From the NCBI GenBank assembly GCA_951406725.2, contig OX597821.1, forward strand, positions 26,598,001-26,662,000: a stretch of DNA of 64,000 nucleotides, written 5' to 3'. The translations under genes and the position numbers were made by a program. This DNA comes from Octopus vulgaris. Lineage: Eukaryota. Below, piece after piece: positions 10,711 through 49,274 of the stretch (positions within the stretch are counted from its first letter, which is position 1; the number at the start of each line of letters is the position of its first letter). The notes under the pieces were generated by a model. That model ran no database searches and was not told the DNA's origin. It saw only the letters and a program-made list of their open reading frames with translations.

Positions 10711-10844
10711 TACATACATACATGCATATATACAAACACGAGGCGTTTGAATATCTGGAGCACTTCAAAGTGAAGCCTATACATTGGAAAAAATATTTTT
10801 CCTTATACTCGCCGAAATTGCGAGGATGACCCGGTTCTTGACTG

Positions 10845-10967
10845 AAGATAAAAGGCTTCGAGTGACCCGTCCTTGTTTTTTTGTATCGTCTATCTGGATG
10901 TTTTGTTGTCCCTTTTTGCATCACTTAGTTGTCCGGATGTTTTGCATTCTTGTCCCATTTTGTATCT

Positions 10968-12436: not shown

Positions 12437-12752
12437 CATACACTGTGGCTTCTTTCAGTTTCCTTCCACTAAATCCACTCACAAGGCTTTAGTCGGTCCG
12501 AAGTTGTAGTAGAAAATACTTGCGCACGAGCCATGCAATGGGAGTGAACCCCTAACCATATGGGGTTACACATACACACATATAGATACATACACATGGT
12601 TGCCCTATATAGTTCGGGGTCAACATCTACTTTTTCACGTCCAGTTCTATGTTTTCTCTCTAATCCAATTCTCGATAGAATTAAATGCATTTAAGTTCAT
12701 TAGCAAGAACAATAACCCTACAATATTCATATTTCCTTATTGTCCACAATTG

Positions 12753-13327
12753 ACTAAACACAGAGGGGACAAACAAGGACAGACAAAGGGATTAAGTTGA
12801 TTACATCAACCCCAGTGCGTAACTGGTACTTAATTTATCGACCCCGAAAGGATGAAATGCAAAGTTGACCTCGGCGGAATTTGAACTCAGAACGTAACGA
12901 CAGACGAAATACCTATTTCTTTACTGCCCACAAGGGGCTAAACACAGAGGGGGCAAACAAGGACAGACAAAGGGATTAAGTCGATTACATCGACCCCAGT
13001 GCGTAATTGGTACTTAATTTATCGACCCCGAAAGGATAAAAGGCAAAGTCGACCTCGGCGGAATTTGAACTCAGAACGTAACGACAGACGAAATACCTAT
13101 TTCTTTACTACCCACAAGGGGCTAAGCACAGAGGGGACAAACAAGGACAGACAAAGAGATTAAGTCGATTAATTCGACCCCAGTGCGTAATTGGTACTTA
13201 ATTTATCGACGCCGGAAGGATGAAAGGCAAAGTCGACCTCGGCGGAATTTGAACTCAGAACGTAACGACAGACAAAATACCGCTATTTCGCCCGGCGTGC
13301 TAACGATTCTGCTAGCTCGCCGCCTTA
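12753..13327 (-). mobile_element. Nin-domain-type SINE concatemer (one head, three tandem bodies of about 180 bp)
   Basis: Core GACTTTGCCTTTCATCCTTTCGGGGTCGATAAATTAAGTACC repeated three times. Head AAGGCGGCGAGCT at the right end. Confidence 0.85.
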
Positions 13328-18893: not shown

Positions 18894-19784
18894 TGCTGGT
18901 TTGTGCAACAAAGTTGAATAGATCAACGTCTGGACAGTAGTAAGCTGAACTGAAGATCAAACTTCAATTCTTGAAGATTTTCTCCAAACGAGCAAGAACG
19001 TACAAGAAAACGGAGATTAGTATCAGCTTGACAGTGGATCCATGGTTTCGGAAAAGGATTAACTAGAGAGCAGGCTGGTTTGTTTTTTATTTGCATCTTC
19101 TAGATGTTTTAAAAGTAGTTCACATCCAAATTCACTAGATATGCATATAAAATGTGCCAACAAGGCAACCTAAACGACCTTGGTTGACGTGTTTGAATTA
19201 GCAGCTAAATATCTATAAAGTTAAACATTAGCATCTAGAAAAGTGGGAGAACGTATTTCACTAACGTGATTCTCAATATGGCATTTGGAGAAAAAGAAAA
19301 GACCCGCATGCTCAGCTGTAAAACGTTTTGAGTGTAACTGATAAGAGTTGACCCGTAAGAAATATAACGACAACGCAGACATGAAGTTAAAAAAATTGTG
19401 TCCGAAAACTAGTCTATGACAAATGACAAAATACTATAATGATATACGAGATATCGAATTTCCAAAAACAATAGTTATTCAGAACAGCAACACCATTCAC
19501 ATAGCAGTAACTGTAATAATGAGCTGTAGAGTACAAACAACACATGTACACACACACACACGCGTATACATATAAGAATAGAGAAATAAACAAAAGCATT
19601 ACTACATAGCTTGTTAGGACACACAGAGTTGTTTACTCTTGGGATTATATAATAAACTGTATTCGTTATACACGTTACTGTAACAGATATAGCAGACCAC
19701 GTTTACTGGAGTTCCGAGCGACACTATTTCCGAGAATATCAGAGTGGAGGAGAAGATTAGTAAGTTGTATTGAAATGCTAAATT

Positions 19785-28525: not shown

Positions 28526-28897
28526 AAATAGCGTCATAGAGAATCAATCGTTGGCTAGACAAAGTATCGCGTTTTCTTTGTAACAACTAACAAGCATGGT
28601 CTAATGAGTAGCGTTTAAGTCAGCATTTCTTGTGCATGAACAACAATCAAAATGATAGTAACTGAACATAGAAAGATACATCAAAATAAGGTAAAGTGGG
28701 TCTAGAATTTTAACCACTTATTTCTTTTTAATGAAAATTTAATGATTTAATGTGTCTTATTTAATCAAAACTAATGATAAATTTGTATTAAACAGAGAAG
28801 AATTAAGATCAGACCCGAATAAGGCAAGAAGAAATATCGGAAAGTAAGTCCATTGTTGGCTCTGAAATTTTGTGCCGGTGACTTCGTAGTTAGCAAG

Positions 28898-29043
28898 ATG
28901 ACAAGTTATATCCATGAACCAGGTCGAATACCAGCTGTTTGGCAAACGATTCCTGAGAAACTAAAATGCTTGGCGGAAGAGCAGCCAAACAAATTAGCAT
29001 TTGTTGTATATAAAGAAAAAGACGATCGACAGCAATTGACGCG
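28898..29043 (+). CDS. Gene A coding exon 1: ANL-superfamily acyl-CoA synthetase-like (ACSF2/luciferase-like) enzyme
   Basis: ATG at 28898 gives [22 protein letters not shown]...RQQLTR. Donor CG|GTAACT at 29044, phase 2, matching acceptor TTTTCAG|A at 29612. Homologous to the gene B exon, also 146 nt. Confidence 0.93.
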
Positions 29044-29118
29044 GTAACTATCTATCTATCTGTCTATCTGTCTATGCGCCTGTCTCTCTGTCGATCTATC
29101 TGTCTGTCTGTCCCTTCG

Positions 29119-29200
<82 letters not shown>

Positions 29201-29278
29201 AGTCTGTCTGTCTGTGCGCCTGTCTCTCTGTCGATTTATCAGTCTGTCTGTCTGTCCCTTCGTCTGTCCATCTGTCCA

Positions 29279-29313
<35 letters not shown>

Positions 29314-29612
29314 CTCCTACTATCTGTCAGTCAATCAATCTATTTGTCTGTCCGTCTGTCTGACAGTTTGTTGCTCATTTCTTTTTTTCCGTTTTCTCCC
29401 CTTCATTTCTAATGTGTTAGCCGTTTTCTTCTTATATAATCTCGGGTTTCTTATTCTATTTGGAGGCTTTGAGAGAGAGAGAGAGAGAGCATCAGTTAGT
29501 GAGGCATAATATTTCCAGTAGTATTAAGAGTAATTAAAAAAGATGATGTTAGATCTCACCAATGCCTTGATATGTACACTATCTCACTTCTACCTTCCAT
29601 ATATATTTTCAG
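29044..29612 (+). other. Gene A intron (569 nt, phase 2), rich in (CTAT)/(CTGT) repeats
   Basis: GT..AG ends. Splicing gives the codon CGA (Arg) and a continuous 549-aa frame. Confidence 0.9.
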
Positions 29613-31116
29613 AAAAGAGGTGTATGACGGTACTGTGAAGTTTGCAAAAGCTCTTGTTAAGTTAGGCGTTAAGAAAGGAGATCACGTCGCTTTATGTATA
29701 TCCAACTGTGTAGACCTCATAATCTACGATACCGGAATTATAATGGCCGGAGCAGTTTCATTGAGGCTGAGTCTAAAGTCAGGAGATTTTAAAGACATTT
29801 TTTCCGGATGCAAAGCGGTGATATTTGACTCAAAAGATTCACTGGATAAATTTTGTGCAATTGCTCAAATTTCCGATGACGGTAAAGTAACTAGCGAAAT
29901 ATATCCGGAATTGAAGTTTGTCATCAATATATCCAACACATATTGCCCATCCAACGTTCTATCTGCCACAAACCTTATGTTGAATATCAATGACAGTGAG
30001 CAAGTCGACTTACCTAATTTGGACCCAGAAGACATCGCATTTATTTGCCAAACTTCCGGTAGTACAGGCCGACCCAAAAATATCTATCACACACATTATA
30101 ACTGGTTGAATAGCATAGTACATGCCATGGATGCAAGTAGTGTAACCTCAGATGATACAACATACAACACTCGTCCAATGATATACATCGGTGGATATCC
30201 ATTTGGGTTGTTTTCTGTTGGAACTACCCATGTAACTGGAAATGTTCAAATGCTAAACGACATTAAGAACTTAGAGTTTATTGAAAATATATGGAAAAAA
30301 GAAGGCTGTAATATACTTTGGCTTCTGCCACAGCATCTACAACTACTCAGAGACTGTGGGCATCGCGCAAAGGCTATTCTTACCGGTGGAGATATGCTTA
30401 CAAAAGAATCATTAATGCATTCCTTAAACTTTACTGAGCATATACAAATTGTGTATGGAAGTAGTGAAGCTACATTTTTAACTTCACGGGTATTTACAAA
30501 AAAAAATATTTCTGAACATCTTCCGAAAATGCTAGGGAGGCCTTTCCCCGATACAGAAATGAAGATTGTTGACGATAACGGAAAAACCGTTAATATAGGA
30601 GAGGTTGGCAATATTGAAGTTCGAAATAAATGGACAGCTAAAATAAACCTGGATGGCGATTCGACAAATACAAATGGCTGGCAGTCAATGTCAGATATAG
30701 GTTATATGACACCAGAGGGGGATTTTTTTCTAGTTGGAAGAAATACAGATTTTATCAAGAAGTCAACAGTGAAGGTACCTGTCAGACAAGTTGAGGAATA
30801 TGTCAGTCATCACCCTAGTGTAGAAGACGTAGTTGTGGTTCCGATACCGGATGAAGAAGTTGGTGAACGGGTGTGTGCGTGTATTACCATCCGAGATAAT
30901 CACGAATTCAATGAAGACGGGCTTAAAAAGTTCTGCTTGGAAATTATGCCACAGCAAAGCGGTTTTGATATTGTAACGCTGCACCCAGATTATTTCTTAC
31001 ATTTTACAAGCTTTCCATTATTAACCTCTCAGAAATTTGATAGAAGGTCAATTAAATCAACAGCAATTGCTTTAGTAGAAAAAAATATTAAGAAAAAAAA
31101 CTTTCTTCAGAACTGA
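29613..31116 (+). CDS. Gene A coding exon 2: AMP-binding and C-terminal domains (spliced protein 549 aa)
   Basis: Uninterrupted ORF with A3 P-loop QTSGSTGRPK, A5 YGSSE, A7 SDIG, A8 GRNTDFIK and A10 PLLTSQKF. Confidence 0.96.
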
Positions 31117-31599
31117 ATCCGGAATAATTCATAGTCGGTTGCTGAAATTAACCTGGAATGGATATTTATTCTTAGAATTTATTTCGTTACAACTCTGAAT
31201 TAGTAACGGAGAATGTTTTAGTTCTCGAAATTCTTCCCTTATTTTATATTTCTACTTCCAATCCATTCAAAGCATTCAGACAGGAATCTTTCCAAATATC
31301 AAAAGCAACATTTTAATTATTGTCAACTAATTCCGACATATCTACATTCATCAATGATTGATAAATTAATTAAAATAGTAGCCTTGAAGAAAACAAATGT
31401 TGAGTATACTGCGATTTATAATGCTTTTTGAAATATTTGATTCCAATGTCTTTACTATAATAATTGTTACTTACACTGATTCACAACAATGTTGACAGAA
31501 TCTTCACGGTATTTGTTCCGATTCTCTTCGTTCCGAGTTCAAATTTCACTGAGGACGTCGTCGCTCTTCCCTGTCACTAATCTCTTTTAAAACTCCAAT

Positions 31600-31845
31600 G
31601 TGGAACTTCTTCCGAGCGCATTGCTTGGATGGTAAAGGGTTGCGGGCGCTTGCCGACACTCCAGGTGCCAAGCGCTCTTTCTCGTCTACGCTTGATCTAG
31701 GTGTTAGGTGACGAGCTGGGTGGCCAGTCTCACGCAGAAATGGCAGAGAGGAAGCTGTCTCTGAAGGGTCGGGCGGAGGTGGCGAATGCGTACATCGCTT
31801 CCGTCATCTACAACCACTTGACTGTCGCCCCTTTCCCTGCATCGT
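31600..31845 (+). mobile_element. Tx1-like LINE fragment (same family as 46-2915)
   Basis: 31735-31830 matches 1629-1720. Confidence 0.8.
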
Positions 31846-32646
31846 AGCTTACTTTTCCTTTCATCTTTTCGACAAAAAAAGTTTAATGAAAAAGAGTTGA
31901 TAAAAATATTTAAAAAAATGTATAACAATTTAAGTTGCTGGATTGACAAAACAGCAAAACTACAGACTGTATTTGTTATTCTGAGTTCGAATCCCGCTCT
32001 GTCCTACTTGGCTACTAGACTTCACCTGTCGGCCGGCTTAATACTATCACCGTGGGTGCTTTTAGCAGAGTCCATTCTATTGGATGCAAACATTCGGGTC
32101 GGTCTTCCAGTTTAAGAACACTTCCATCTCATCATTCTCGAAGGTCTTGAAACGGGTCTTTCTCTCCCATTAAAAGATATATAAAAGAATACTAATAATT
32201 TCTTAAATATTGTCATTTCAATAAGTTTTAAATGTGGGAAGTCTAGTCGTGCGAATCGACATCAATACTTGACAGTTTCTTATTTTACCAACCCCAAAAG
32301 AACAAGCAAAAAGGAGAAAAAGCAAGACCGATCTTTGCGGGACTTGAACTTTAAAAAAAAATGTAAAATAACAGAATCTAGTAATCTAATTCATCTATGC
32401 TGACATTAAACTAGTCCTACCAAATTGCTCGCAAGCCTACGCAATAACTATGTAAGAGTACTTATTAGTCACATGTTATCACTCCAAAACCAACTGATAT
32501 TTGAAAGGCAATTACGAATTTTCAGTCTATTATATACTTTCATTTATATAATAAATATCCGCTGGTATATCTTAAATTTCTAATAAAATTGTTATTTCAC
32601 CACCACAGTAATTAAAGTTGTTTTTTTTAAAAAAAAATTTCTGTAA

Positions 32647-32791
32647 TATTAGGTTGTCCCAAAAGTTCGTAAACACTTGCGAAAATTGAATTTTTACTTG
32701 CCAAGTACTAACAAAAACAACAAAAATTATTCCTCAAAATAAAGACCATTATTTTCCAAGACTTTCTACGAACTTTTGGGACAACCTTATA
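32647..32791. mobile_element. Tc1/mariner-type MITE (about 145 bp)
   Basis: TIRs TATTAGGTTGTCCCAAAAGTTCGTA / TACGAACTTTTGGGACAACCTTATA with TA ends. Confidence 0.88.
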
Positions 32792-33155
32792 GTAATATGA
32801 TAAATAATATCTTTTAAAACTAGTTCCTAAATATTAATATTGTAATTAAAAGAGTTTCGGTATATAATTTCGCTGGCAGAAAGTAAGGACAGAATAGCAA
32901 CTGTGAACTGTTTTTTTTTTTTACCGATCGGAAATGATTTCACTCCAGTCATGTCGCTAATGCACTTCCAAAAAGCATGAAACCTTCAATTGCTAATACG
33001 TACAGATTTCCAAATACAAATATTCAATAACGCATGTTCAGTAATAAATACTATGATATATTATATTATAGAGTACACTTTCTATACATACATAGATACA
33101 TGCATACATACATGCATGCATACATACATACATACATACATACATACATACAAAC

Positions 33156-33990
33156 GGTACCGCGCAAAAGTCTTCGACTACTTTAAACAATTGTAAATTT
33201 CAATTAATTACCAACTTATACGTGGATGTTTCGCACTGCGCTTTTTTACAGATGAAACATTGACCCTGTCGGAGTCATTTCTATACCTAATCATTATATT
33301 TTGTAGTAGTGGTTCCAAATGAGAGAGGAAAATGCGAGACGACCACCGAAAATGACCATGCAAAACCTTTCGGCCACCTCACATAAACCAATCAAGATAC
33401 ACTGTGTTAAAACAGAAAAAAAATGTCTATAGTGAAAATTTATTACATAATGTTCATTTGAATAAGTTACTGTATATTGTTAATATTTCATGTAGCTTCT
33501 CTTAGCTTGAATAATTGCTTCAATGCATACAAATCCTTCACGATCTTCATAGGTATGAGATACCATTCTCTGTGGCTGAGCTCCCACAACTCTTCAAGAT
33601 TGCTTGGATTCTTCTGACGAACTCTTCTCTTTACTTCTGTCCACATTTGCTCGATGATATTTAAGACAGGGCTCTGAGCTGGGCAATCTGTCAATAAGGT
33701 AACACCTTTATCAGCCAGACTCTGTTGTGTTGCACGGGATCTGTGACATGGAATTCTGTCATGCTGAAAAATCTCACCTCCATCCAAGTCTGGTATCAAA
33801 TTCTCCTTCAGCAACTGGATGTATTTTGGCACTGTTCAAGTTACCGTCAATTTTAGCCAAATTTCTTGAACCACCACTTTTTATGTATCCCCAAAGCATC
33901 AGACTCTTACTCGCAAACTTCACTGTTTTCGTCGTGAAGCGTGGGTTGTTTTGCTTTCCTGGAGGCCTTCTGACAAAGCGAAACGACACA
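33156..33990 (-). mobile_element. Tc1-like transposon 3' half
   Basis: LMLWGYIKSGG...IFQHDRIPCH...PAQSPVLNIIEQMW (DDE catalytic region), frameshifted. Confidence 0.88.
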
Positions 33991-34339
33991 ATAATAATAA
34001 TAATAATAATAATAGTATACCCGATATAAATCTATCAACAGCAAAAAAGAACGATATCATTTGTCTCTGTGCGGTCATACAAAAGACCATATATAGTAAA
34101 TCTTTAAACTTTACTATCTAAAACTCGCTTCCTTTTCTTTTTGACTCCCTCTTAGTATTCGAAAATGTAAGCATCCTTTTCATTGCAAAAGTTCTACTGT
34201 ATTCTCCAACTGGACAAACAAACGAACATCTCAAGAAAACTTAAAAACTTTAATATATTACCCAAATACGTAAATGCATCTTTTATTGCAACAACACAAA
34301 TGAATTCAGAAATTCAAAAATTCAACGACGTGAATATCA

Positions 34340-34384
<45 letters not shown>

Positions 34385-34390
<6 letters not shown>

Positions 34391-34840
34391 AGGGCATTAT
34401 TACATAAATGCCACACGCTAGGAGGGACTCATAAAGTTAAAACTACTAAAATAAATAATCACATCGTACCGAATGCAACTCTCGACGCAAGTTATTTAAA
34501 AACAGAATTCAGCTGCAGATCACTGTGATTTCATAATCAGTGCAGTGGTGCACTCTTTACTCATCAGTGCAAGCATAATTCAAGATTTATAATAAACAAA
34601 ATCAACATACCAGGCAAACAACTATCGTATCCAACGTAGTATATCCAACGTAGTATATTTGAGTAAAGAGTGCACCACTGCATTGATTATGAAATCACAG
34701 TGATCTGCAGCTGAATTCTGTTTTTAAATGACTTGTTTCTAGTGTTGCATTCGGTACTGTGTGTTTATTTATTTTAGTGGTTTTGACTTTAAGAGTCCCC
34801 CCTAGCATGTGGCATTTATATATAATAATGCCCTCTATAT
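34385..34840. repeat. About 178-bp inverted repeat beside (TA)n carrying a hammerhead; Penelope pLTR-like
   Basis: 34385-34563 is the reverse complement of 34660-34840. Confidence 0.9.
34512..34574 (-). ncRNA. Type I hammerhead ribozyme with canonical core
   Basis: gcttgca-CTGATGA-gtaa ag agtgca ccac tgcact ga ttat-GAAA-tcac a gtga-TC-tgcagc. All core nucleotides and three stems are present; AUC cleavage triplet. Confidence 0.8.
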
Positions 34841-35599
34841 AATATAAATAAATACATTTAAGTGAAAAAATTGCTGGATTTTTTCCCTTATGAGGTTTTT
34901 TACGCTGACTACTTGATAAATTCTTATGAAGATTTTATCCTATTTTAAAATTATATATGTATACATATATGTATATATATTATTGTTTTTTTCTACCAGT
35001 AATTACAAATAGAACAGGTTGAATTGCTTCTTTTCAAGGCAGCGCTGTCAGTGGTCACTGGTAGTTGTAAACACATTTGATCTCTGCTGACCCAAAAGAT
35101 GAGAAGATTCTTTTGTTTCTATGGCTGACCTCCCCACCATCTGCCGAATCTATTTATAGATCTGTAGAATATGATATATTCACCAAGCTACTCCCCGACT
35201 ATTTCCTTCAACAATCACATGACAAAAGTTGAAAATAAAGAACATTTAGTAAAATCTTTTAATAAAAAATGGAAATAGTAATAATGATAATAACAATAGT
35301 AGTGGTAGTGATAGTGATAATGATAAAAATAAAAATAAAAATAATATGCTGCAGCTGCTAATACTATAAATACTACTATTATGATAGCACAGGAATCTGA
35401 GGCCCATCTATTACCCTAACCACTACACTGCCCCTGCTACTGTTGCTGTTGTTGCAAACACTGCTGCTACTACACATGAAAGTAATAATATCAGTGATAT
35501 CAGTGATGATAATAATAATAATCATAAAGAAAGGAAACGAGTGGAACCTCTCCATGGACTGATTAATGATACATCTAGTGATGGTGTCACAATAAAAAT

Positions 35600-38500
35600 A
35601 CTGGTAATTGCGCAACCTGATAATCGCTACCTCATATGAGTGACAATGGAAAAACAAAATATTGTGAATAACGGGGGCAATGAAACTGAAGCTAATGATG
35701 GTGACAGAGTTGCACCCGGCAGGCTCAGAGATTCTGGTCCGGCTCCAGCCTGTAGATATCCAGAAAGGGACCACCACACACGGCGTAGATGGAGCAAGTA
35801 AATTAATGCTGTGGTCATGGAGTGTTATCTGAGCAATGGTGAAAATGGTGCTCAAATTAGGGGTTACCGACAACGTATTGGAGAGAAAAGGGATTGTTTC
35901 AACTCACAGAACACAGGCTATGTGATCAAGCTAGAGCGATAAGAAAAAAAACGTTGGTTCACAGAAGTAGAGCTCGAAGCTATCAAAAGACGGGTCTTGG
36001 AAAATAGCAGCAGAGATAACGATGAAAATACAGTTCTTACTAATAAGAGTAATCTCATAGCACAGGAAAGAAGCAGTGGTAGTTTAATTGCTGAGAGACA
36101 TATAGATGTTTTAAAAGAAGATAAAAAAGACTAATGGCGATATGACAGATGAACAAAAGGCAATCTACGACAGAATAAAAGCAAGACTACAGGAGAACGA
36201 TAGCGACATTTTTTGCAACCTTAAAAAGGTTGACCGATGGAAATTGAACCAAGAAACGAAAAATGTCAATGAAACATCACAGAAACAAATAATTTGATCA
36301 AGGCAGCAAGTATTGCTGTGGCAGAAAATGTGGGTGTCGATGTCAAGAAAAAGAAACAATGGGAGTGACAAAAGAAAAAGATCCATGGTGGAAAAGAAGA
36401 ATCCAGGCAGGGTTAGACATGCTCTCGAAAGAAATCTCTGTGTTAGACCGAAAAGAGAAAAGGGAGCTTAAAAGCGAACAAAAATACAGGGCGCTGAAAA
36501 GGAAGTATAATATTGAAAGAAAGGGCCTGAAAGTAGTAATAGAGTAACTGAAACGGCGCATCGCTGCAAAGAAAGCAAAGACGGTAAGATACGACCAACG
36601 GATGAAAGATTACCAGCAGAATAGGTTATTCAGAGTAGATCAGAAGAGATTCTATAAAGAAATAAATGGAGAGTGTACAGATGAAAAGTTGATATCAGAT
36701 AACAATGAAAGCCAAAGGTTTTTGGACTGACATCTGGAGCAAATACAAGGACCACAAGAAGGAGGCTGAAGGAACTGAAACAAACAGTAGTCTGTCCAAA
36801 ACAGGCAGAACTAGTCATTTCAGTTAGGGAAGTGAAGGAAATCAGCAAACAAAAATAGGCAATTAGATGCCCCGGGACCAGATGAAGTTCAAGGCTATTG
36901 GATCAAAAGATTTGATGAATGTTATGCACGAATAGCTACGCAACTCAACATCTTGTTAAGTTCCCATCAAGCAACTCCAGAGTGGTTGTCATTGGGTAGG
37001 ACAGTGCTGTGCCTGAAAAACATCGGAAAAGACTATACGGTAGACAATTATAAGCCGATATCCTGTTTGCCACTTATGTGGAAGTTATTGACTGGAATAC
37101 TCGCAGAGTCAATGTACGAACATCTGGAAAAAATGGAGTCCTGCCACATGAGCAGAAGGGTTGCAAGCGTAAGGGCAGAGGGACCAAGGATCAATTCCTG
37201 ATAGATAAAACTGTACTCAAAGACTGCAAGAGGAAGAAAAGTAACTTAGCCATGTCATGGATTATGGAGTGTATGAACCTGTTTGAGATTGCATCGAATG
37301 CTGAGCGATTGCTTGGAAAAAGTATGGCGAATTGGAGGACGGACCTGACAGCATATGGAAGAAGTTTAGGGACAGTTGGGCATCTTCCAAGGGGTCTGCC
37401 TGTCCCCACTGATCTTTGTACTGTGTTTGATACCACTAACACTGATTCTGAGCATAGCAAAACCATTTGTTATTCATGGATGACCTCAAACTTTATGGTA
37501 AAGATGAAGCCCAAGTCAGTTCTCTCGTTGATACTCGTGTTCCCTCGTGTATACCTTCAGTGCTGATATCAGAATTGAGTTCGCACTCAGAAAGTGTGGT
37601 GTGTTTGTCTTGAAGAGAGGCAAAATCAAATGTATGGACGGGCTAACGATAGAAGAGACGGGCTATAAGTAATTGGGGATTTTGGAAATGGATAAATTGA
37701 TGGAGAAAGAAATAACAAAAATTTAAGAGGGAGTACTTGCGCAGACTGAGATAAATCCTTAAGTCGAAATTAAACGGACGGAATAAGCCTGAAACTATCA
37801 ACACCTGGGCAGTTTCACCCCTTAGATATGGAGCAGGGGTAATCGGATGGACAGTAGACGAACTAAACAACTTAGACAGAAAGGCAAGGAAGTTACTAAT
37901 TAGATATGGGACACTCCACTCAAAAAGTGACACAGACAGACTGTATGTACCAAGAAAAAGAGGGGGGAAGAGGACTTATTGGATGTGAATACAGCATTAA
38001 AGCAGAAGAAAACAACATAGCATGGTATGAAAAAATGTCACAGAACCGCTAGGCTTGTGTAGGATGAAATACTGCAAAGATAAAGCACTGTACAAGAAAT
38101 TTAAATCGAATGAAACTGAAAATAGGTGAGTAAAGAAAAGAATGCATGGTCAATTTCGTAGGAATGTTGAAGATAAGACAGAGAAAAAAGATGGTTGTGG
38201 ATGACCAAAAGTGATTTAAAACTGGGAACGTAGGCTCTAATCTGTGCTGCCCAAGAGCAAGCACTAAGAACAAACTACATAAAATATAGAATAGACAACG
38301 CATCAGAAAGTGATAGATGCAGAATCTGTGGAACCAAAGGCATCGTCGAAAATGAAAATGCAAAGATCCTATGGGATTTCATGATTCTGTGCGACCATGA
38401 GATAGAGAATAGGTTGCCGGACATAGTCTTAATTGAGAAAGAAAACAAACTATGCTGAATCATAGATATAGTATGCCCAGCTGACAACAAGGTATGCGAT

Positions 38501-38795
38501 AAGGAAGAAAGAAAAGTCAAGAGATATGACAGGTTAGCTTGGGAAGTTAAGCTGCTGTGGTCGATGAAAAAGGTAGCAGTAGTAGCAATAATTGTCGGAG
38601 CCCTGGGAACAGTAAGCAAAAATCTCGAGATGTACGTTGAACAAATAGGGGCTGCAATAAGGGTGGATCACTTGCAGAAAACAGCACTGCTTGGAACCGC
38701 CCGAATACTCCGGAAGGTGCTCGAAAAATAAGGTGTTACCTTAGTCAGTGAACAGCTGACACCGCAGTACATCTCCGGCGTTAGAAGCTGTGCAG
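35600..38795 (+). mobile_element. Near full-length decayed R4/Dong-clade non-LTR retrotransposon (RT plus restriction-like endonuclease)
   Basis: DPWWKRRIQ; [27 protein letters not shown]; [17 protein letters not shown]; [13 protein letters not shown]; RLPDIVLIEK. Ends in (CAA)/(TAA)n at 38796-38860. Confidence 0.9.
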
Positions 38796-38814
38796 CAACA
38801 ACAACAACAATAAC

Positions 38815-38860
<46 letters not shown>

Positions 38861-38862
<2 letters not shown>

Positions 38863-39530
38863 CAGAGATGTTTAACATGTGAGAGCGGTAAAAAACTGCT
38901 CCGAAATCTATCCAAAAACATCGAGAATAAAGACTTCACATGGAGCCAAAAATAGTTGACAAAATGTTGGACTATATCCAAGTAAGTAATACTCATTGAA
39001 ATTTATTACTATTTTCAAAATGAAATTATGTATTTTAACTGTATATCGTTTCCACAGCTCGCACAGCACATGTAAACACGCTTGCCACATTACGATCCAA
39101 TCAAAACCAGACCATCTCCGTCCCCAAACACCATGTACAAAAAAATTAAATAAATAAAAATAAATTAAATAATGCCGGTATTATTCAACCCAAGAATAAC
39201 AATCAGGAAGTGCATACTTTAAACTTGTTACACAAAAAGTACGAAAAACTACACCTGCAAAACAATTTAACACCAGAAATGAAAGGACCGGTACCCTACG
39301 AAAAAGACTACCGTCAAAATAAAGGCCGGACGTTATTCCTCATTTCCCGCAAATAAAATCAAAAAGCATAAATGGACACGCGAGGAATATATTTCAATCC
39401 TACACGCTTATTCTATAGCAGTGCTCTACCCAAAGAACGAAAACATCACAACATATACATATAAAATCTGGAACAAAAATAACCTAACTAAAGACCTGGA
39501 TACAGCATTAAACCCTCATAAAGTAGCTAA
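38861..39530 (+). mobile_element. 5' end of a second R4/Dong-like family
   Basis: Starts after (AAT)n; KHKWTREEYISILHAY. Inverted match to about 58860-59510. Confidence 0.75.
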
Positions 39531-39544
39531 AATCTTTTTTTTCT

Positions 39545-39900
39545 GTTGTTATACCACAGTGTTGGCATAGCTTCCAGTGTATGTAGGTCCCAACTCTGTC
39601 GTGTCTGCAATATATTCCTTCCTAGCCAGGACTGGGCAGTCAACGACAATATGTTTTAGTGTTTCTTGTCCATCACATATTCTTCAGTTACTTGCTCTGT
39701 TTCTTTTCATTACATGCTTTTGGTAATTTCTGGAGGCGAGGCTTTGGTCGTGTGCTGCAATTAAAAATCCTTCAGTCTCTGGTTTGAGTCCTGAGCTTCT
39801 GAGCTATTGCTGGGATTTTGCTTTGTCTATTTCTTTTGCGTTTAATTTAGCCAAGTATTTACCATGAAGGGGCTTTTCTTGCCATCGTTTTGTCATGATC
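39545..39900 (-). mobile_element. R4/Dong-like LINE fragment (zinc-finger region)
   Basis: WQEKPLHGKYL...SGLKPETEGFLIAAHDQSL...ETLKHIVVDCPVLA. Confidence 0.8.
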
Positions 39901-40995
39901 TGGAAACTGTGTAGGATGAAAAGTAAAACCAGTCAAAAGACGGATGAACTCAGTAGAGTCAATGGCTACAAAAAATCTGGGAGTAAGAGACCACTAGTCT
40001 TTATTTAGACACCTTCCTAGGAGAAGGAAATTTCGAAATAGCCCTTGTCTCATTGGGAAGCCGGAGATATTGCTCTTCCTTCATTTTGACTTTGTAGGTA
40101 AGTCTTAGCAGTATTCTGCAAGTAGTTACTGACTTTAGATTTCAGCACGGGCATTGCTGATGGCTATTGTCTTTAACATCTAGGGTATGATAATTTGTCA
40201 GTGATGATCATACACACCTATGAGTTGAAAGTCATTATGCATGTCTGTATATATGCACGCGTGTATATGTGTATGCATGCCCCATAGCTCAGAGATGCAA
40301 CAACTATAACTAAAGTTAAGTACTAGACATCCAAAAACAAAGTCGATACGAACATCTGAAGTGGTTTTATAAGCAATGAGTTTGTTTGATATTTGAATGT
40401 GGCTGACCAATAATTCTAGGTCTCTTGCAACACTTGACAAAGGCAGCAAAAAGCGTCGAAATGCACAACACTTTCGCATATATTATGCAGGTGATTTCCT
40501 TAAAATAGTCGTAGCAGTGCTGGCTAAAATTCCTATTGCTATGTTTACTTGTATATTATTGTAACGAAACAAATCACTGTCAGCACATCAGTAATTTAGT
40601 ATTGAGAAAAGTAAGATCCCGAGCTTTTGGTAAGTTGGTTAAATTTAGCCAAGTGTATTGAAGATAGGCGCAGACATAACTGTGTGGCCAAGAAGTTTCG
40701 AGTTCAGTCCCACTGTGCGGAACTTTGAATATCTTCTATTTTTAGTACTCAGGTCTACCAAATCCTTGTGAGTAAACTATTCGAATGGAAACTCTGCAGA
40801 GACCAGGCATGTATTTATTCATATATAAGTGCGACTGTGTGTATATGAGCCGATATGTTTGTGTTCACCGCATGACGACCAGTGTAACTTTCTTCATGTC
40901 ACTGTAACTCAGCGGTTAAGCAAAAACACTCCCACTAGAATAAGTACTGGGCCTTAAAGAAATACTGGAGTAGTTTTATCCATTAAAACCTCCAG

Positions 40996-41181
40996 GCTGG
41001 TAACCCAAAATTTTGAAGCTGGTGACCCAAATTTTTGAAGCTGGCGACCCAAACTTTTGAAGCTGGCGACCCAAATTTTTGAAACTGGCGACCCAAACTT
41101 TTGAAGCTGGCGACCCAAATTTTTGATGCTGGCGACCCAAACTTTTGAAGCTGGCGACCCAAATTTTTGAAGCTGGTGACC
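40996..41181. repeat. 22-bp minisatellite, about 8.5 copies, alternating variants
   Basis: GCTGGCGACCCAAA(T/C)TTTTGAA at a 22-bp period. Confidence 0.95.
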
Positions 41182-41699
41182 TGCAGTCCAGTCACAGAAA
41201 AAAGAAAATGAATAAAAGATATATTCGTATTCTTTTATTCATTATCTTTATAGAGAATTCGGAGGAGTGATACACTACACATATAAACTAATTGCAATAA
41301 TTATAAATATACATTCATGGCCACAAACATAGGCCAATGTGTATAAGTATTTGAAAAAAAACTGGTAATTCATGCATATTCATAAACACAGGGGCATATT
41401 CTATCTGTCTGTGTCTCTCACACATATATACACACTGAGAGGTTGACGAAAAGTAAAGGAAACAGCACTTCATATTTGAATATTTCTCTATTGGCAATAA
41501 ACTAAATTCACAAGTCTTCGAGTCTGTATACATGTTTTCATTTGCATTATGTTTGCCTTATAATGTATAATATAGACATTGATCTCTGTTTTGAAGATAT
41601 TAATAATAAAATACATAGTAGGGTAAACTACTTCGTGTGCACCCCAACCCCATTTTGAAGTAGGAAGTAATGAACTTAGTAAGAATGGCAGCTTTGTAG

Positions 41700-42195
41700 A
41701 CATGTAGACTTAATAGACTTTGGTGTGAAGTTTAATGTTCCTTTCATTCCATAGGCGATGATGGGGTTTACGAAATGCGTTGGTTGCTTGTGCAAGACGG
41801 TTGACGATTTCATCTTCTAGGGAAGCGCTCGAGTTCACTTTACTACCAATATATGTAAATAACTTCACATAAGTTAGGTTTTACCCATCTACCTTATTAA
41901 GAGTGTTAGGGAAATTGTGTACAGATGGCCTCTACTTGACACCCCGAACTGTTTTAGGAGTAGGGCAAGGTTGGTGAATCACTTCCATTTTCTTTATACT
42001 GATGGTCAAAGCTGGTCTAGAAGTTTCTCAGCTTCCTTTAATGAAGCCGCTACTAGTGCAGTAGCATCTGAAAAAAGCAGATTACGAATGATACTGGTTT
42101 GTAGCAGTGCTTTGGCTTTGAAACGCTGGTGATTGACTAGTTCAGCACGTGACCGAAACTGGAATTTGACACCACTTTGTATGTCACCAAAAGCA
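41700..42195 (-). mobile_element. RTE-clade LINE RT fragment
   Basis: IIRNLLFSDATALVAASLKEAEKLLDQL (degenerate LFADD motif) and FTYIGS. Confidence 0.7.
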
Positions 42196-42200
42196 TACTT

Positions 42201-42357
42201 AGGAGTGGCTGTGTGGTAAGTAATTTGCTTACCAACCATATGGTTCCGGGTTCAGTCCCACTGCGTGGCACCTTGGGCAAATGTCTTCTACTATAGCCCC
42301 GGGTCGACCAAAGCCTTGTGAGTGGATTTGGTAGACGGAAACTGAGAGGAGCCCGTC

Positions 42358-42394
<37 letters not shown>

Positions 42395-42569
42395 CACGCA
42401 CATGCATACACACGACGGTTGTCTTTCAGTTTCTGTCTACCAAATCCACTCACAAGGCTTTGTTCAGCCCGAGACTATAGTAGAAAACACTTGCTCGAGG
42501 CATCACGCTGTGGGATTGAACCCGGAACCATGTGGTTGGGAAGTAAACTTCTAACCACGTCGCCGCGCC
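42201..42569. mobile_element. Tail-to-tail inverted pair of SINEs around (TA)n
   Basis: 42201-42361 (+) and 42410-42569 (-) belong to the same GGAGTGGCTGTGTGGTAAG...GGTAGACGGAAACTGA family. Further copies at about 12445, 13512, 40668 and 48591. Confidence 0.85.
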
Positions 42570-43054
42570 TTCACGATATCTTTATGAAATTAGAAATTCG
42601 TTGGCGATGGCATTACATTCAAACAATGGCTAAGTATTTTCAAATCATATCTTAAATGTGTAACAATAATAGCAACAACAAATAACAGGAATAACAAAGA
42701 AAAACAAGAAAACAGACTAAGAATTTAATTCGACTATTTATTGAAGTACATCGATCGATGACTATATTTTCGGCATAAGTGATATAAATCTAGAAGATCT
42801 GGCAAGATTTGGACTAAGAAATATAGGCTAGAAGGTTATCTCATGTAGATGCGTGACTCTCAAATTTTATAGAGAGAAAGAATTTAAACCATTCTCAAAG
42901 TTTAAATTTCCATCGGAAATTAAAATTGGCTCACAATTACTGGGGACACTTTTTTCTCTTCAGGGATAGTTAGTTAGGGAATGCGAATATTGGCTTCCCG
43001 TTTTAGCACAAGGACTTTTCTACTCCAGGCACATGGAACGAAATTTTGCGGGAA

Positions 43055-43577
43055 GGGGGCCAGTCGATTAGATCGACCCTAGTACGCAACTGGTACTTAA
43101 TTTATCGACCCCGAAAGGATGAAAGGCAAAGTCGTCTTCGGCGGAATTTGAACTTAGTACGTAAAGATTGAAGAAATATTTGTTTCTTTATTACCCACAG
43201 GGGGCTAAACATAGAGGGGACAAACAAACGGATTAAGTCGATTACATCGACCCCAGTGCGTAACTAGTACTTAATTTATCAACCCCGAAAGGATGAAAGG
43301 TAAAGTCGACTTTGGCGGAATTTGAACTTAGTACGTAAAGATTGAAGAAATATTTCTTTCTTTATTACCCACAAGGGGCTTAACATATAGGGGACAAACA
43401 AACGGATTAAGTCGATTACATCGACCCCAGTGCGTAACTGGTACTTAATTTATCGACCCCGAAGGGATGAAAGGCAAAGTCGACCTCGGCGGAATTTGAA
43501 CTCAGAACGTAAAGATAGACGAAATATCGCTAAGTATTTCGTCCAGCGTGCTAACGTGTCTCTCAGCTAGCCGCTTT
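43055..43577 (-). mobile_element. Nin-type SINE concatemer (about 2.6 units)
   Basis: Same family as 12753-13327. Confidence 0.88.
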
Positions 43578-43743
43578 CAGAAGGACTGAATATTAAATGA
43601 GCGAAGCCAATGAGATAAGATGTCTTCCCAAAGATGTTAGTACGGTAAATGACATGAAAATGGTATCATATAAAATTTAAAAATTAGCCGTGGTATCGTT
43701 TCTCTAGCTATTTACCTTTTCTTGTATCTATTCAAATAAAACG

Positions 43744-44141
43744 AAGGCGGCGAGCTGGCAGAAACGTTAGCACGCCGGGCGAAATGCGTAGCTGTATTTC
43801 GTCTGCCGTTACGATCTGAGTTCAAATTCCGCCGAGGTCGACTTTGCCTTTCATCCTTTCGGGGTCGATTAAATAAGTACCAGTTACACACTGGGGTCGA
43901 TGTAATCGACTTAATACCTATGTCTGTCCTTGTTTGTCCCCTCTATGTTTAGCCCCTTGTGGGTAATAAAGAAATAGGTATTTAATCTGCCGCTACGTTC
44001 TGAGTTCAAATTCCGCCGAGGTCGACTTTGCCTTTCATCCTTTCGGGGTCGATTAAATAAGTACCAGTTACGCACTGGGGTCGATGTAATCGACTTAATC
44101 CGTTTGTCTGTGTTTAGCTCCTTGTGGGTAATAAAGAAATA
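43744..44141 (+). mobile_element. Nin-type SINE concatemer (2 units), head-to-head with the previous one
   Basis: AAGGCGGCGAGCTGGCAGAAACGTTAGC head followed by two bodies. Confidence 0.88.
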
Positions 44142-44824
44142 ACTATTCACATAAAACAATATCAACATTAATTTTCAACTGTGACATTCTTTCCCATCAA
44201 TGGTCCTCTGCATGGTTGCACGACGTCATACAGGTATCAAATGAAAAGTTTTTGTACTCGTAAGAATACAGGATAGTCATAGAATAATTCTACTCCATTG
44301 GGGAAAAGCTGGGACTCGGCACATTTTGTTAACTGAACATTTCATTTCGGTAATGCATCGAGACCGTTGTTTGTCCTGATGAGTCCTTCCATTTTTAAGA
44401 ACATTCGGATCCAGCCGTACAAACTCTAGTATGGCTCTCATTACTTATGGGCCTTTTCAGGACCTTCGAGACTGGTGGGAGGAAAGGACCTAAAGTGAAT
44501 GTTCAAGTATTAGAAATTGAGTGAGACATGTCTGCAACTCAAAATGTCATTATTAGAAGCATGGAAATAATTTCTATTCTGAAATCATGTCAAAGAATAC
44601 ATTAATATAGTTTAAAGATAAGTATTCGAGAACATTTTACAAATTTAACTCTTATGTTCTGGCATCCCCTCGCCATATTCTCAATTAGAGCTGTAATATT
44701 TTTCACTTCATTGCACGGGATTTGAAATTGATGCGCTATGAAACAGTTTTCAAGAAACAGAGTTCAGTTGATATATCTCTTTAATAAGAAAAGCAACAAT
44801 TATTGAAAAACAAAATTCGGAATT

Positions 44825-46310
44825 TTACTTTCCGTATGATTCCTTCACCATTTCAATTGCAGAACACTTTATGGAAGGTTTGTTATATTTTTGACTGGGA
44901 AGCTTTGGAAAGCTGGTAAAATGTAAGAAATAGTCCGGAATTATTGTTACATGGTCAAAATTACTTGGATGCGGCATTGTTTCTGTGCAGAATTTTGTTA
45001 AATCATCTCTGCTGAATTTGTGACCCGGTAGAATGGTAACACAGGCGCATATACATTCACCAAAGCTTTCATCTGGTATTGGTACCACAACCACTTCTGC
45101 AACGCTGGGGTGACGGCCAACGTATATTTCAATAGTTTTTAAGGATAACTTCACGGTAGACTTTTTAATAAAATCTACACTTCTACCTATCATTATGAGA
45201 TCACCATCAGGAGTCAATTTACAAATATCTGACGTAGGCATCCAACCCTTTTCTAAACAATTCCTTCCATCCTGAAATATTTTTTGCATCCAACCATTAC
45301 GAATGTACAGAGACCCAATGCTTCCGATGGGAACAACATTTTTGTTTTCATCAAGGATTTTAGCCTCTGAACCTGGAAGCAGTCGACCTAACATTCCTTC
45401 TACATGTTGCTCCATATCTTCTTTGGAGAATAGTCTCTGTGATGATACTAACGTTTCAGTACTTCCATATCCAAGGGAAAATTTGTCTGCCAGACGAAAA
45501 GAATTTTCAATCCAGTCTCTTGCAATTAAATCTCCTCCTGATATAATCCGTTTTACTCGGAAATCTGATTCTCTGATATATTTTAATCTCTGTGGAACTA
45601 CCCATACTACGTCACATTTTTCTGTCTTCCATAAATCTATAATGAAATCTATGTTTTCGTTATTATTTAGCAGTTTCACATCTCCCGTGACGTGTGTGCA
45701 GCCAATTGACAAAAACATTGACGGATAGCCAACAACATATCCCATTGGACGGCTACAATAAGCCTTATCTTTTTCATTGACGCCAACATCTGTGTAAAAT
45801 GTGTAAAATCCATTGATCCAGTTAAAATGTGAGTGACAAATTCGTTTAGGAACACCTGTTGAACCAGATGTTTGAGAAATTAGTGCAGTATCATCAGGAC
45901 TCATGGGGGGAAATATTATATCAGTTTTACTACTTACATCTTCCATCAACTTAGCTGCAGACAAAACATTTTCAGGACGCTCCGCTTCTGAGACAGCAAT
46001 GGCTAATCTCAAGTTTGGATATATTTCAGAGGAAACCTTCCCATTATCAGAAATGTCAGCGATTTTGAGGAAGTTTTCCCAAATATATTTGGAATCAAAT
46101 ACAACTAAACTGCAGCCATGTAATACCGTTTTAAAATCTGCCAATCCAAGCATTACTTTCACAGAAATTGCCCCAGCCATAATTATGCCGACCTCATATA
46201 TCAACCATTCAACACAGTTGGATACACTGTAGGCAACTAACTCTCCTTTCTGAATTCCTAAATTGATAAGAGCTTTGGCAAATTTTACAGCGCCATCGTA
46301 AACTTGTTTC
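44825..46310 (-). CDS. Gene B coding exon 2: ANL-superfamily acyl-CoA synthetase-like (ACSF2/luciferase-like) enzyme (spliced protein 543 aa)
   Basis: Intact ORF with QTSGSTGVPK, YGSTE, TSDIC, GRSVDFIK and PKLPSQKY. Acceptor TTTTATTTCAG|G at 46311, phase 2, at the same position as in gene A. Confidence 0.96.
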
Positions 46311-48746
46311 CTGAAATAAAAGAAAAGAATAAACACATGCTTAAATAGATATACTTTATAATGTTTTCGGTATAAAAGTGTATGTAAAGTATCTCATAAA
46401 TAGACATTTAAACAATACTATAATATCGAAAACTCTTTTAAATAATGCTTGGTATAATTTTTAAAATTTTCAAGTCTACCAGAAATGAACAGGTTTTTAT
46501 ATATACACCTTAGCCTCGACTTACGAACTATGCGATTTACGACCATCTGGACTCACAACCACAAAAAATAAGAAACTATAAAACATAAGTAAATAGGTAA
46601 AAAAGAATCGATTTTCGGACTCTGAGCAGCTGCGCGTAACGATAACTATGGCTAGTGTCTGGAAACGCAGGTCTTCCTCTGACCCAGGCATCCACTGCCT
46701 GCCACTGTCTCTCACTCAGTCATTTTCAAGCATTAGTTGCATTTTGAATCAAAATAATGTTGAAAACTATAAACCCGACATACGACCAGATCCACTTACG
46801 ACCTGTAAGTCAGAACAGAACTCGGTCGTAAATCGAGGAGAAGGTGTTCCAAATAATCCTTTTTACTATTGGCACAACGCCTGAAATTTGGGCGGGGGAA
46901 GGGGGATAGTTGATTACATCGACCCCAGTACTAAATTTATCGACTCCGAATGGATGAAAGGCAAAATAGACCTCGGCGAAATTTGAACTCAGAAAGTAGC
47001 GGCAATTTTTGCGCGGCGTGCTAACGATTCTGCCAGTTCGCCACCTTAACGTGTTCCAAATAAAATTATGTTTAAAACTTAAAAAACGAAGGTGAAATAC
47101 TAAAAAGTTTTGCAGATATCTGAGATTCGATGTATTTAGGAATTCTTTTTGCGTCTCCAGATTTAGGTTTCTTAAATCATTCAAGCTTACTCAATATGTT
47201 ACCTCAAATTTCAATAATATAATAAGAATTAAAATTCTCAAACTGCCACGCAATTCCAGAAATTGCCACGCAATTCCAGAAAGTGCCACGCAATTCAAGA
47301 AATGCGAAATGTCAATTTTCGTTCCTTTTTAGAAAAACCTCCATGTATCATATATATATATATAATACAAAATGGGACAAGAACGCAAAAAATCCGGACA
47401 GCTAGGTGATACGAAAGGGGACAACAAAACATCCAGATAAACGATACAAAAAAAAAAAAACAAGGACGGGTCATTCGAAGCTTTCTATCCTCAGCTTACA
47501 AGGCCGCTACCATGAGCAAAACACAAATTTACGAGTAATCTTCACACTTTAGGAATGGTCACTTGAAGACCAATATCGACCAGGGCAACCGTCGATCTCC
47601 TGAACAAATGAAAACATCACGAAGTTCATGAACTGATTTTTGAGGACCGTCGTCAAACAATTGACAAACTTGTTGATATGACTAATGTGTCCCGGATTCC
47701 CTGCCAAAGAATTTTGAGCGAGAAATTGCGAATGAAAAGAGTTGCAGCAAAATTTGTACCTCACTTGCTCACGGAAGATCAAAAGATGTCATGACTGAGT
47801 TCTTGCCGTGAACTGAAAAAAACAGTTGGAAGTTGATTCGAACCTTTTCGATGATCATCACTGATGACGAAAGCTGGAACTACGCCTACGAACTGGAAAC
47901 GAAGTAGCAATCAAGTCAATGGAAGCATTCAATGTCACCACGCCCCCCCCCCCCCACTGTGAGTCAAGTGAGGTCCAGTGTCAAGACGATGCTGATTTGT
48001 TTCATCGAGGCGAAAGGAATTGTTCACACAATATTTATTCCTCCTGGTCAAACTGTTAACCAGACATGTTACTTGGCACTTCTGAAGAGTTTGCGAGACA
48101 CGGCGAGATGAAAACACTCTGACCAGTGCCAAAGTGGAGTGTGGGTGTTTCTTCACGACAATGTGCCTGCAAAAACCACCTCGAGGATGAGACAGTTTTT
48201 GACCAAAAATGGCTTGACTTCGTTTACCCACCCTCCCTATTCACCCGATCTTGCACCCTGGAACATTTTTTGCCCCACCCACCCAGAATGAAAATGCCCT
48301 TAAAGGAAAACGTTTTGCAGACGTGGAAGAGGTGGAGAAAAAACGACAGGGGCGTTAAAAGGCATCAATTCGCAAAAGCTTTAGGACTGCTTCTAACAAT
48401 GGAAAACGCCTCTGGACCAATGCACTGCTTCAAATGGAGAATATGTTGAAGGCGATAAATGTGTAAACATGTAAAACTTTGCGAATAAAATAATATTGTA
48501 AAATTCCGGTTTCTTTTGGGTACCAAGCAATAAACAAATTCATATATTATTACTATTAAATGTTATGCAATGTATTTATTACTTGTTATAGGCGCAGACG
48601 TGGCTGTGTGATAAGAAGATTGCTTCGCAACCAAATGACTCCGTGTTCAGTCCAATTACATGGCAACTTGGGCAAGTGTCTTCTACTACTGTCTTGGGTC
48701 GACCAAGCCTTGTGAGTAGATGTGGTAAACGGAACTAAAGGAAGTC

Positions 48747-48816
<70 letters not shown>

Positions 48817-49128
48817 CCTTTCTTTGGCATCTTGTAAGAGTTTTTAAGTAAGTATCACAGTCAAATATTTTGTTTGATGTCCTTCCATGAAAACATGTGT
48901 GGTCAGGGAGAATTGTTACCTTACTTTGAAATAGCTGAGAGTTGACGATAGAAAGGGTATCCAACCTTAGAAAATCCATCTCGACAAATTCTCTTCGACC
49001 CACGTCAGCATGGAATATTGGTGGCTAAAGCGACGGTGAGGAACTTACGTAATATTTAGAAATGTAATACAACGAACGTATTGTGAGATAAATGTAGACA
49101 TTAATATAAAATTCAAACCAAAACCTAC
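46311..49128 (-). other. Gene B intron (2818 nt, phase 2)
   Basis: Donor CG|GTAGGT at 49128 and acceptor at 46311. Contains mariner and SINE relics. Confidence 0.9.
47500..48522 (+). mobile_element. Mariner relic in the gene B intron
   Basis: MKRVAAKFVPHLLTEDQK; IITDDESWNYAYELETK; FLHDNVPA; HPPYSPDLAP. Confidence 0.88.
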
Positions 49129-49274
49129 CGAGTTATCTCCTGCCGATTCTCTTTGTTTTTATAAACGACAAGGGCTGGTTTGTCAGGGTCATTTTCAGCA
49201 AGCTGGTACACGCGTTGCGGTATTGTTTGATACATGAAGGAGACTTTACTTGGACGGTGAATGTAACTGGCCAT
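49129..49274 (-). CDS. Gene B coding exon 1 (not in the ORF track)
   Basis: Reverse strand reads MASYIHRPSKVSFMYQTIPQRVYQLAENDPDKPALVVYKNKENRQEITR, aligning without gaps to gene A exon 1. 146 nt; in-frame TGA 33 nt upstream of the ATG. Confidence 0.93.

Follow-up and report, generated by a model that had tools for sequence, protein, structure and literature searches.

We analysed a 64,000-nucleotide stretch of the Octopus vulgaris genome (assembly GCA_951406725.2, contig OX597821.1, positions 26,598,001–26,662,000 of the forward strand; hereafter the window), in which two genes, A and B, both intact, are diverged paralogues within a family of ANL adenylating enzymes expanded in cephalopods. 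Both encode the full residue set for adenylation and lack the A8 glycine that lines the coenzyme A (CoA) tunnel of related ligases. We tentatively propose that they are cytosolic enzymes that adenylate acids and would pass the acyl group to an acceptor other than CoA, most plausibly an amine. What is new relative to the literature, as far as we found, is that the loss of this tunnel glycine is clade-wide and shared with the luciferase candidates of the firefly squid Watasenia (the wsluc proteins). The headline of an earlier, sequence-only reading of this DNA, a luciferase/ACSF2-like convergent pair, is not itself new, because the genes are annotated and the link to wsluc was published in 2016 with the gene B orthologue.

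Gene structures and coding integrity

Genes A and B lie tail to tail, with 13,708 nt between their stop codons (coordinates are those of the window):

28898 (+): gene A start ATG, from sequence
28898..29043 (+): gene A coding exon 1, 146 nt; the spliced protein equals CAI9726604.1
29044..29612 (+): gene A intron, GT-AG, 569 nt, holding a (CTAT)n/(TCTG)n microsatellite
29613..31116 (+): gene A coding exon 2, with P-loop QTSGSTGRPK, Arg236, Tyr240, YGSSE, Asp410 and Lys523
within 29613..31116 (+): gene A A8 motif GRNTDFIKKSTVK, with Thr434
31817..32073 (+): likely gene A 3′ untranslated region (UTR), homologous to a hepatopancreas reverse transcription PCR (RT-PCR) product published for XP_014779995
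49274 (−): gene B start ATG, from sequence
49129..49274 (−): gene B coding exon 1, 146 nt, with an in-frame stop 11 codons upstream
46311..49128 (−): gene B intron, GT-AG, 2818 nt, in the same position and phase as the gene A intron
44825..46310 (−): gene B coding exon 2, with QTSGSTGVPK, Arg236, Tyr240, YGSTE, Asp410 and Lys523
within 44825..46310 (−): gene B A8 motif GRSVDFIKKSTVK, with Thr434

The encoded proteins are 549 amino acids (gene A, one terminal stop) and 543 amino acids (gene B) long, and align without internal gap at 261 of 543 identical residues (48%), bearing out the earlier description of two intact, half-identical paralogues 13.7 kb apart. The long frames of the window (29503–31116, +; 44825–46393, −) are free of stops for 537 and 522 residues; 30 shuffles gave a longest stop-free frame of 209 residues, and the two frames are thus not due to chance. 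Both proteins pass the Pfam cut-offs for AMP-binding and AMP-binding_C. Nucleotide differences between the genes fall 218/136/324 at codon positions 1/2/3 across 543 codons, with non-synonymous divergence (dN) of 0.44, synonymous divergence (dS) of ~2.1 and a ratio of ~0.2 that is only rough because dS is near saturation; this pattern indicates that both genes are under purifying selection, as the sequence-only reading had supposed.

Upstream of the ATGs, in-frame stops at 26 codons (gene A) and 11 codons (gene B) exclude a mitochondrial presequence, which points to a cytosolic location. The first 35 residues of both proteins are near neutral (the start of the gene B exon being assigned by eye), and gene A exon 1 likely starts at 28796, its 5′ UTR portion carrying an in-frame stop.

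Gene A corresponds letter for letter to the annotated protein CAI9726604.1. The public gene B model, CAI9726605.1 (443 residues), agrees with our frame for 423 residues and then jumps to a piece near 42065 (−). We read this model as mis-spliced after residue 423, the genome carrying an intact 543-residue frame that is supported by proteins of O. sinensis (98%) and O. bimaculoides (90%). At the other gene, the gene A protein ends in KKKNFLQN owing to a run of eight A at 31093–31100 (+). The end of the O. sinensis protein, KKKKLSSELNPE, would be expected from a run longer by a single A; either the species differ here or the homopolymer was misread.

Loss of the A8 glycine

Both proteins keep the adenylation residues (P-loop, Glu334, Asp410, Arg425 and Lys523), and with them the ANL motif set of A3 P-loop, A5 Glu, A7 Asp, A8 Arg and A10 Lys. 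The A8 family consensus is Rx(D/K)x6G (PMC8388817). In 4-chlorobenzoate:CoA ligase (CBL) the glycine, Gly409, lines the pantetheine tunnel, and a G409L variant loses thioesterification only (PMC6122825); CoA addition by acetyl-CoA synthetase (Acs) is stated to be prevented in G524S/L variants (bioRxiv 10.1101/2021.02.15.431286, citing original work). We scored the site as the ninth residue after the A8 Arg, residue 434 in A and B, and both proteins have threonine where acyl- and aryl-CoA ligases, and enzymes that use a carrier protein, have this glycine. No glycine occurs in 41 cephalopod rows (33 Thr, 5 Ala, 3 Asp; two rows skipped and the gene A duplicate excluded), and only 6 of 30 other mollusc-clade rows retain it (four skipped; some rows assigned by tree position or cluster membership), the site varying across the mollusc clade between T, A, D, P, I, V and S. 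Glycine is present in 172 of 181 other single-domain relatives (five skipped; the remainder 6 Ala, 1 Ser, 1 Thr and 1 Glu) and in 705 of 712 domains of non-ribosomal peptide synthetase (NRPS) type, by a regular-expression count. The sole non-mollusc relative with threonine here is a Mycobacterium spongiae protein (P0112) of weak overall similarity.

Neighbouring basic residues are conserved: Lys432, seven residues after the A8 Arg (R+7), in 41/41 cephalopod rows, Lys or Arg at 436 in 35/41, and Arg236 in 39/43. An AlphaFold model of gene A gives a confident two-domain ANL fold (mean confidence score pLDDT 90.3) and places residue 434 at the hairpin turn between strands 429–432 and 435–438; the ANL structures listed as fold matches share 18–22% identity with it.

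Our literature search returned no paper noting the A8 glycine loss, the family expansion or a function, although most subscription journals lay outside its coverage and the Watasenia figures and supplements, together with a Gene 2018 paper, may bear on the point. It likewise returned no function for the octopod orthologues of A and B, and no mention of luciferase, acyl or AMP-binding was found in PMC9068888 or PMC13076209.

A cephalopod clade that includes wsluc

Maximum-likelihood trees were built with 38 and 64 rows, including wsluc2 and wsluc4 and, as their scope, without wsluc1, wsluc3, Nautilus or a true animal ACSF2; a chimeric cuttlefish model (P0003) was excluded. In the 38-row tree, 19 cephalopod-clade rows including A, B and wsluc2/4 are monophyletic to the exclusion of other molluscs (support 100/100), and the 64-row tree gives the same picture, with a cephalopod clade of 30 rows (Shimodaira–Hasegawa-like approximate likelihood ratio test, SH-aLRT, 100). 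The proposed kinship of A and B with the Watasenia proteins therefore holds. Five subgroups, mutually unresolved, make up the clade: A; B; the other genes of the cluster described below; a second octopus group; and wsluc2/4 with one further relative. It is nested in a 28-row mollusc-wide group of chiton, bivalve and gastropod proteins (100/100, long stem), and the order among non-cephalopod rows is unsure because long branches meet at the tree base. The notion of a lineage-expanded cephalopod subfamily thus survives in part: the wsluc-containing clade is multi-copy in octopods, but the family is mollusc-wide and not a cephalopod invention.

Wsluc2 (AXM90648.1) and wsluc4 (AXM90650.1) share 34–38% identity with A and B. 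An earlier tree (Gimenez 2016) had already grouped wsluc1–4 with O. bimaculoides XP_014779992, the gene B orthologue, and XP_014790470, and gave human ACSF2 as the characterised protein nearest to wsluc, at 24–26% identity (PMC4899746).

Proposed reaction and its alternatives

In the reaction that we favour, a gene A or B enzyme would adenylate a small carboxylic acid with ATP, the C-terminal domain would then rotate into its second conformation, and the activated acid would be transferred to an acceptor other than CoA, an amide conjugate with an amine being the most plausible product. Thr434 would narrow and so block the pantetheine tunnel because threonine is branched and larger than serine; the second conformation would still be used, since Lys436, at the position of CBL Asn411, is kept. 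Arg236 and Lys432 are possible contacts for a charged acceptor, and because pocket residues differ between A and B, their substrates probably differ too. The earlier proposal of specialised chemistry gains sequence support from the A8 loss, but nothing points to the luciferin-type or pigment chemistry that it also named.

As to tissue, the enzymes might handle dietary acids or make metabolites in the digestive gland, a suggestion that goes back to one RT-PCR. Liu 2018 reports a product for XP_014779995, the gene A orthologue, from hepatopancreas cDNA (PMC6011040). The published primers map 700–960 nt past the gene A stop, in the 3′ flank, and match with 2 and 1 mismatches (the interval 31817..32073 itself being aligned by eye); lying 3′ of the stop and intronless, the product gives weak evidence that the orthologue is expressed there. 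The same paper labels XP_014779995.1 ACS in its text and D-AL in its Fig. 2 legend; the primers do map to the gene A flank. For gene B, a run search with exon 2 listed 24 runs, 20 of which contain the stretch, none recorded as RNA.

Several observations weigh against a non-CoA acceptor. The case is predicted chiefly from a single motif, A8, and the glycine mutagenesis was done in bacterial enzymes with different neighbouring residues (PMC6122825, bioRxiv 10.1101/2021.02.15.431286), so that co-evolved changes at positions 432, 435 and 439 could reopen the tunnel. Alanine at the site is tolerated in Acs (G524A; bioRxiv 10.1101/2021.02.15.431286), and in the medium-chain ligase Macs a G459A variant has a kcat of 0.41 against 2.15, called little effect (PMC10455477). 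The 41 cephalopod rows include orthologues and isoforms, are not independent and may record one evolutionary event, and six mollusc-clade rows keep the glycine. A and B have Tyr240 where the amide bond synthetase McbA has Asp, every one of the nearest bacterial profiles describes an acyl-CoA ligase, if with scores well short of the cut-off, and the hepatopancreas RT-PCR product lacks an intron and came from market-bought animals.

Nearly as likely, and a close rival, is conventional CoA ligation: A and B would be cytosolic enzymes making acyl- or aryl-CoA, members of a rapidly evolving mollusc family whose remodelled A8 hairpin still admits CoA, duplication having widened the range of dietary acids handled. 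CoA ligation is the default chemistry for stand-alone animal ANL enzymes, the best NCBIfam profiles for the family are fatty-acid CoA ligases, and digestive-gland expression would be consistent with it, as would the glycine kept in 6/30 mollusc-clade rows and the retained residues for the second conformation. The gene A model also lies ~4 Å from second-conformation structures versus ~12 Å from adenylation-state ones, a weak point that may reflect prediction bias. Against CoA ligation stand the occurrence of threonine at the site in just 1/181 other relatives, the reported CoA-blocking effect of Ser and Leu there (PMC6122825, bioRxiv 10.1101/2021.02.15.431286), and the spread of residues across the mollusc clade, which suggests lost constraint. 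It is unlikely, by a wider step, that A and B adenylate a non-carboxylate or heteroaromatic substrate, or oxidise or release it after adenylation, as proposed for wsluc and coelenterazine disulfate. Common clade membership with wsluc2/4, and the A8 glycine loss and R+7 Lys found in 41/41 rows, speak for such chemistry, as does the adenylation followed by oxygenation that was proposed in discussion for the squid reaction (PMC4899746). Yet identity to wsluc2/4 is only 34–38%, wsluc has Cys at the Arg236 and Lys436 positions and Ile at that of Lys431, none of the wsluc-type residues Cys236, Cys436 and Asp434 occurs in A or B, and the hepatopancreas is the sole tissue in evidence. The Cys and Ile replacements, on a long branch, indicate that the wsluc active site has changed further than those of A and B. 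O. vulgaris is not known to be luminous, and nothing in our analysis supports light production by either gene.

Two further explanations concern identity and origin. That one of the genes is the housekeeping mitochondrial ACSF2 orthologue is the least likely reading considered here, even though several relatives are automatically named ‘ACSF2, mitochondrial-like’ and among characterised proteins human ACSF2 is nearest to wsluc: neither protein can have a presequence, the family is multi-copy, and the PRK12583 profile, which we take as a stand-in for the ACSF2-like group, gives 167 bits for gene A and 179 for the O. sinensis B orthologue against a cut-off of 832 (bacterial proxy 805). When the cephalopod rows are forced into one group with four PRK12583-type bacterial ligases, leaving the other mollusc rows outside, the resulting topology is rejected by an approximately unbiased (AU) test (p 4e-49). 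The sequence-only contention that these are not ACSF2 thus stands on indirect tests, because the trees held a bacterial proxy and no true animal ACSF2. Recent bacterial transfer into octopus, a claim of Liu 2018 about origin and not mechanism, is very unlikely for the family. XP_014779995.1 was listed as nested among bacterial homologues (PMC6011040), the coding region has a single intron, and beyond molluscs the next matches are bacterial-type; but at 100/100, and on a long stem, the cephalopod clade is united with proteins from chiton, bivalves and gastropods, so the family is not restricted to octopus and any transfer predates the split of these classes, and the eukaryote panel as listed in that study had no invertebrate animals (PMC6011040). 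By our trees, which contained no animal ACSF2, an octopus-specific transfer is accordingly unlikely; an older one may have occurred.

An NRPS amino-acid adenylation domain was also considered and rejected: TIGR01733, with a cut-off of 317 bits, scores gene A at 108 and the O. sinensis B orthologue at 101. Asp follows the A4 aromatic in NRPS amino-acid adenylation domains; A and B have Ile241/Val241 and not Asp.

The wider cluster and the window

The seeming self-containment of a two-gene convergent system was overstated, as A and B most likely form one end of a cluster of ~7 paralogues, judged from accession numbers and one spliced model. Seven near-consecutive O. vulgaris records belong to the family (CAI9726595, 597, 599, 602, 603, 604 and 605), some of which are fragments and may be isoforms. 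The CAI9726603.1 model, a neighbouring paralogue, splices via 19693–19759 into an acceptor at 28794–28795, reaching 28796–28808; as this is the first coding exon of gene A, the CAI9726603 paralogue lies to the left of the window on the + strand. The end of the model resembles gene A 5′ UTR exons, and represents either a chimeric annotation or a read-through transcript. A tblastn search of the 64-kb window with 14 relatives as queries found no third ANL paralogue.

A second paralogue group, the second octopus group of the trees (P0122–P0125, P0228), sits on another contig. Its members form a long branch and have changes in A5 (no YG) and A7 (RD for GD) as well, and so may have diverged further in chemistry.

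Orthologues of the pair occur in O. bimaculoides (gene A, XP_014779995, 89.5%; gene B, XP_014779992, 90%), O. sinensis (XP_029640336, 98.5%; XP_029640032, 98%) and Argonauta (GAB1606487, 64%; GAB1606488, 70.5%). Adjacent accessions in O. bimaculoides and Argonauta suggest a conserved A/B pair.

The remaining features of the window are as follows:

19693..19759 (+): AG/GT-bounded 67-nt exon, probably a gene A 5′ UTR exon
31117..44824: 13.7-kb spacer between the stop codons, with repeats and mobile-element remnants
10529–10924 (−): Mariner/Mos1 transposase helix-turn-helix (HTH) fragment, E 7.5e-19
36836–37563 (+): broken frames resembling a non-long-terminal-repeat (non-LTR) reverse transcriptase; weak, with RVT_1 in 21% of one cluster and no Pfam match
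43062–43527, 43743–44111 and 12730–13281: tandem units of 174–184 bp, resembling short interspersed elements (SINE-like)
40996–41181: minisatellite, 22 bp, 8.5 copies, 91% matches
34401–34822: inverted repeat resembling a miniature inverted-repeat transposable element (MITE-like), 163-nt arms 91% complementary, 96 nt between them

The surroundings had been described as decayed transposons. A transposon domain, the Mos1 HTH, was found in 1 of the 13 other open reading frames of the window, with one further frame as a weak reverse-transcriptase lead. Rfam gave zero matches across the whole window. The SINE-like arrays at 43062–43527 and 43743–44111, beyond the gene B stop, are mutually inverted at 85–92% and could pair when transcribed. 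We give the convergent orientation of A and B no functional weight because a repeat-bearing 13.7 kb separates the stops.

Implications

It is possible, if on balance doubtful, that cephalopods carry an expanded family of CoA-independent ligases and that the firefly squid luciferase arose from it after the CoA tunnel had closed. Closure would then predate the split of octopus and squid, unlike the case of beetle luciferase, whose origin was a functional acyl-CoA synthetase, and A and B would serve as soluble, non-luminous stand-ins for the ancestor of the squid luciferase, making octopus conjugates as yet uncharacterised. For the squid enzyme itself, attempts to solubilise it in active form were unsuccessful (PMC4899746). 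Should CoA indeed not be used, the names ‘ACSF2-like’ and ‘YngI’ would be wrong on many cephalopod proteins, a whole family of stand-alone animal ligases would work without CoA, and ordinary octopus paralogues would offer a way to test where the Watasenia luciferase came from; should CoA be used after all, this would be a routine lineage expansion. The A8 loss makes the prediction specific and cheap to test.

Comparison with known systems

The fold places A and B among ANL enzymes at large: firefly luciferase, 4-coumarate:CoA ligase and aryl-acid adenylating enzymes match the gene A model with near-equal E-values at 18–22% identity, and no subfamily stands out. The octopod orthologues carry automatic names only (YngI-like, ACSF2-like). 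Fatty-acid CoA ligases of the ACSF2/PRK12583 type share the fold and are among the best-scoring profiles, but differ at A8 (KKSTVK in A and B, IRGGEN in the ligases) and at A4 (Tyr versus His).

The closest parallel to the chemistry that we favour is the stand-alone amide bond synthetase McbA (PDB code 6SQ8), likewise without the A8 glycine (Ala there, Thr in A and B), whose second step is CoA-independent and which uses Asp201 at the position of CBL His207 (PMC10804368). By a slim margin, it is the top sequence match for a C-terminal stretch of 307 residues. McbA-type enzymes are marked by CoA-independent amide formation at low amine excess. A non-glycine residue at A8 is a state shared with McbA and not diagnostic of McbA-type enzymes; overall identity is ~20%, and A and B are not McbA-type by membership because Tyr240 replaces the McbA Asp. 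The nearest relatives with a studied role are the wsluc proteins, photophore crystal proteins of a luminous squid, whose hallmarks as luciferases would be crystal formation and light from coelenterazine disulfate and ATP. Like A and B, wsluc2/4 belong to the 100/100 clade, lack the A8 glycine and have Lys at R+7; unlike them, they carry Asp at the glycine site and Cys at the positions of Arg236 and Lys436.

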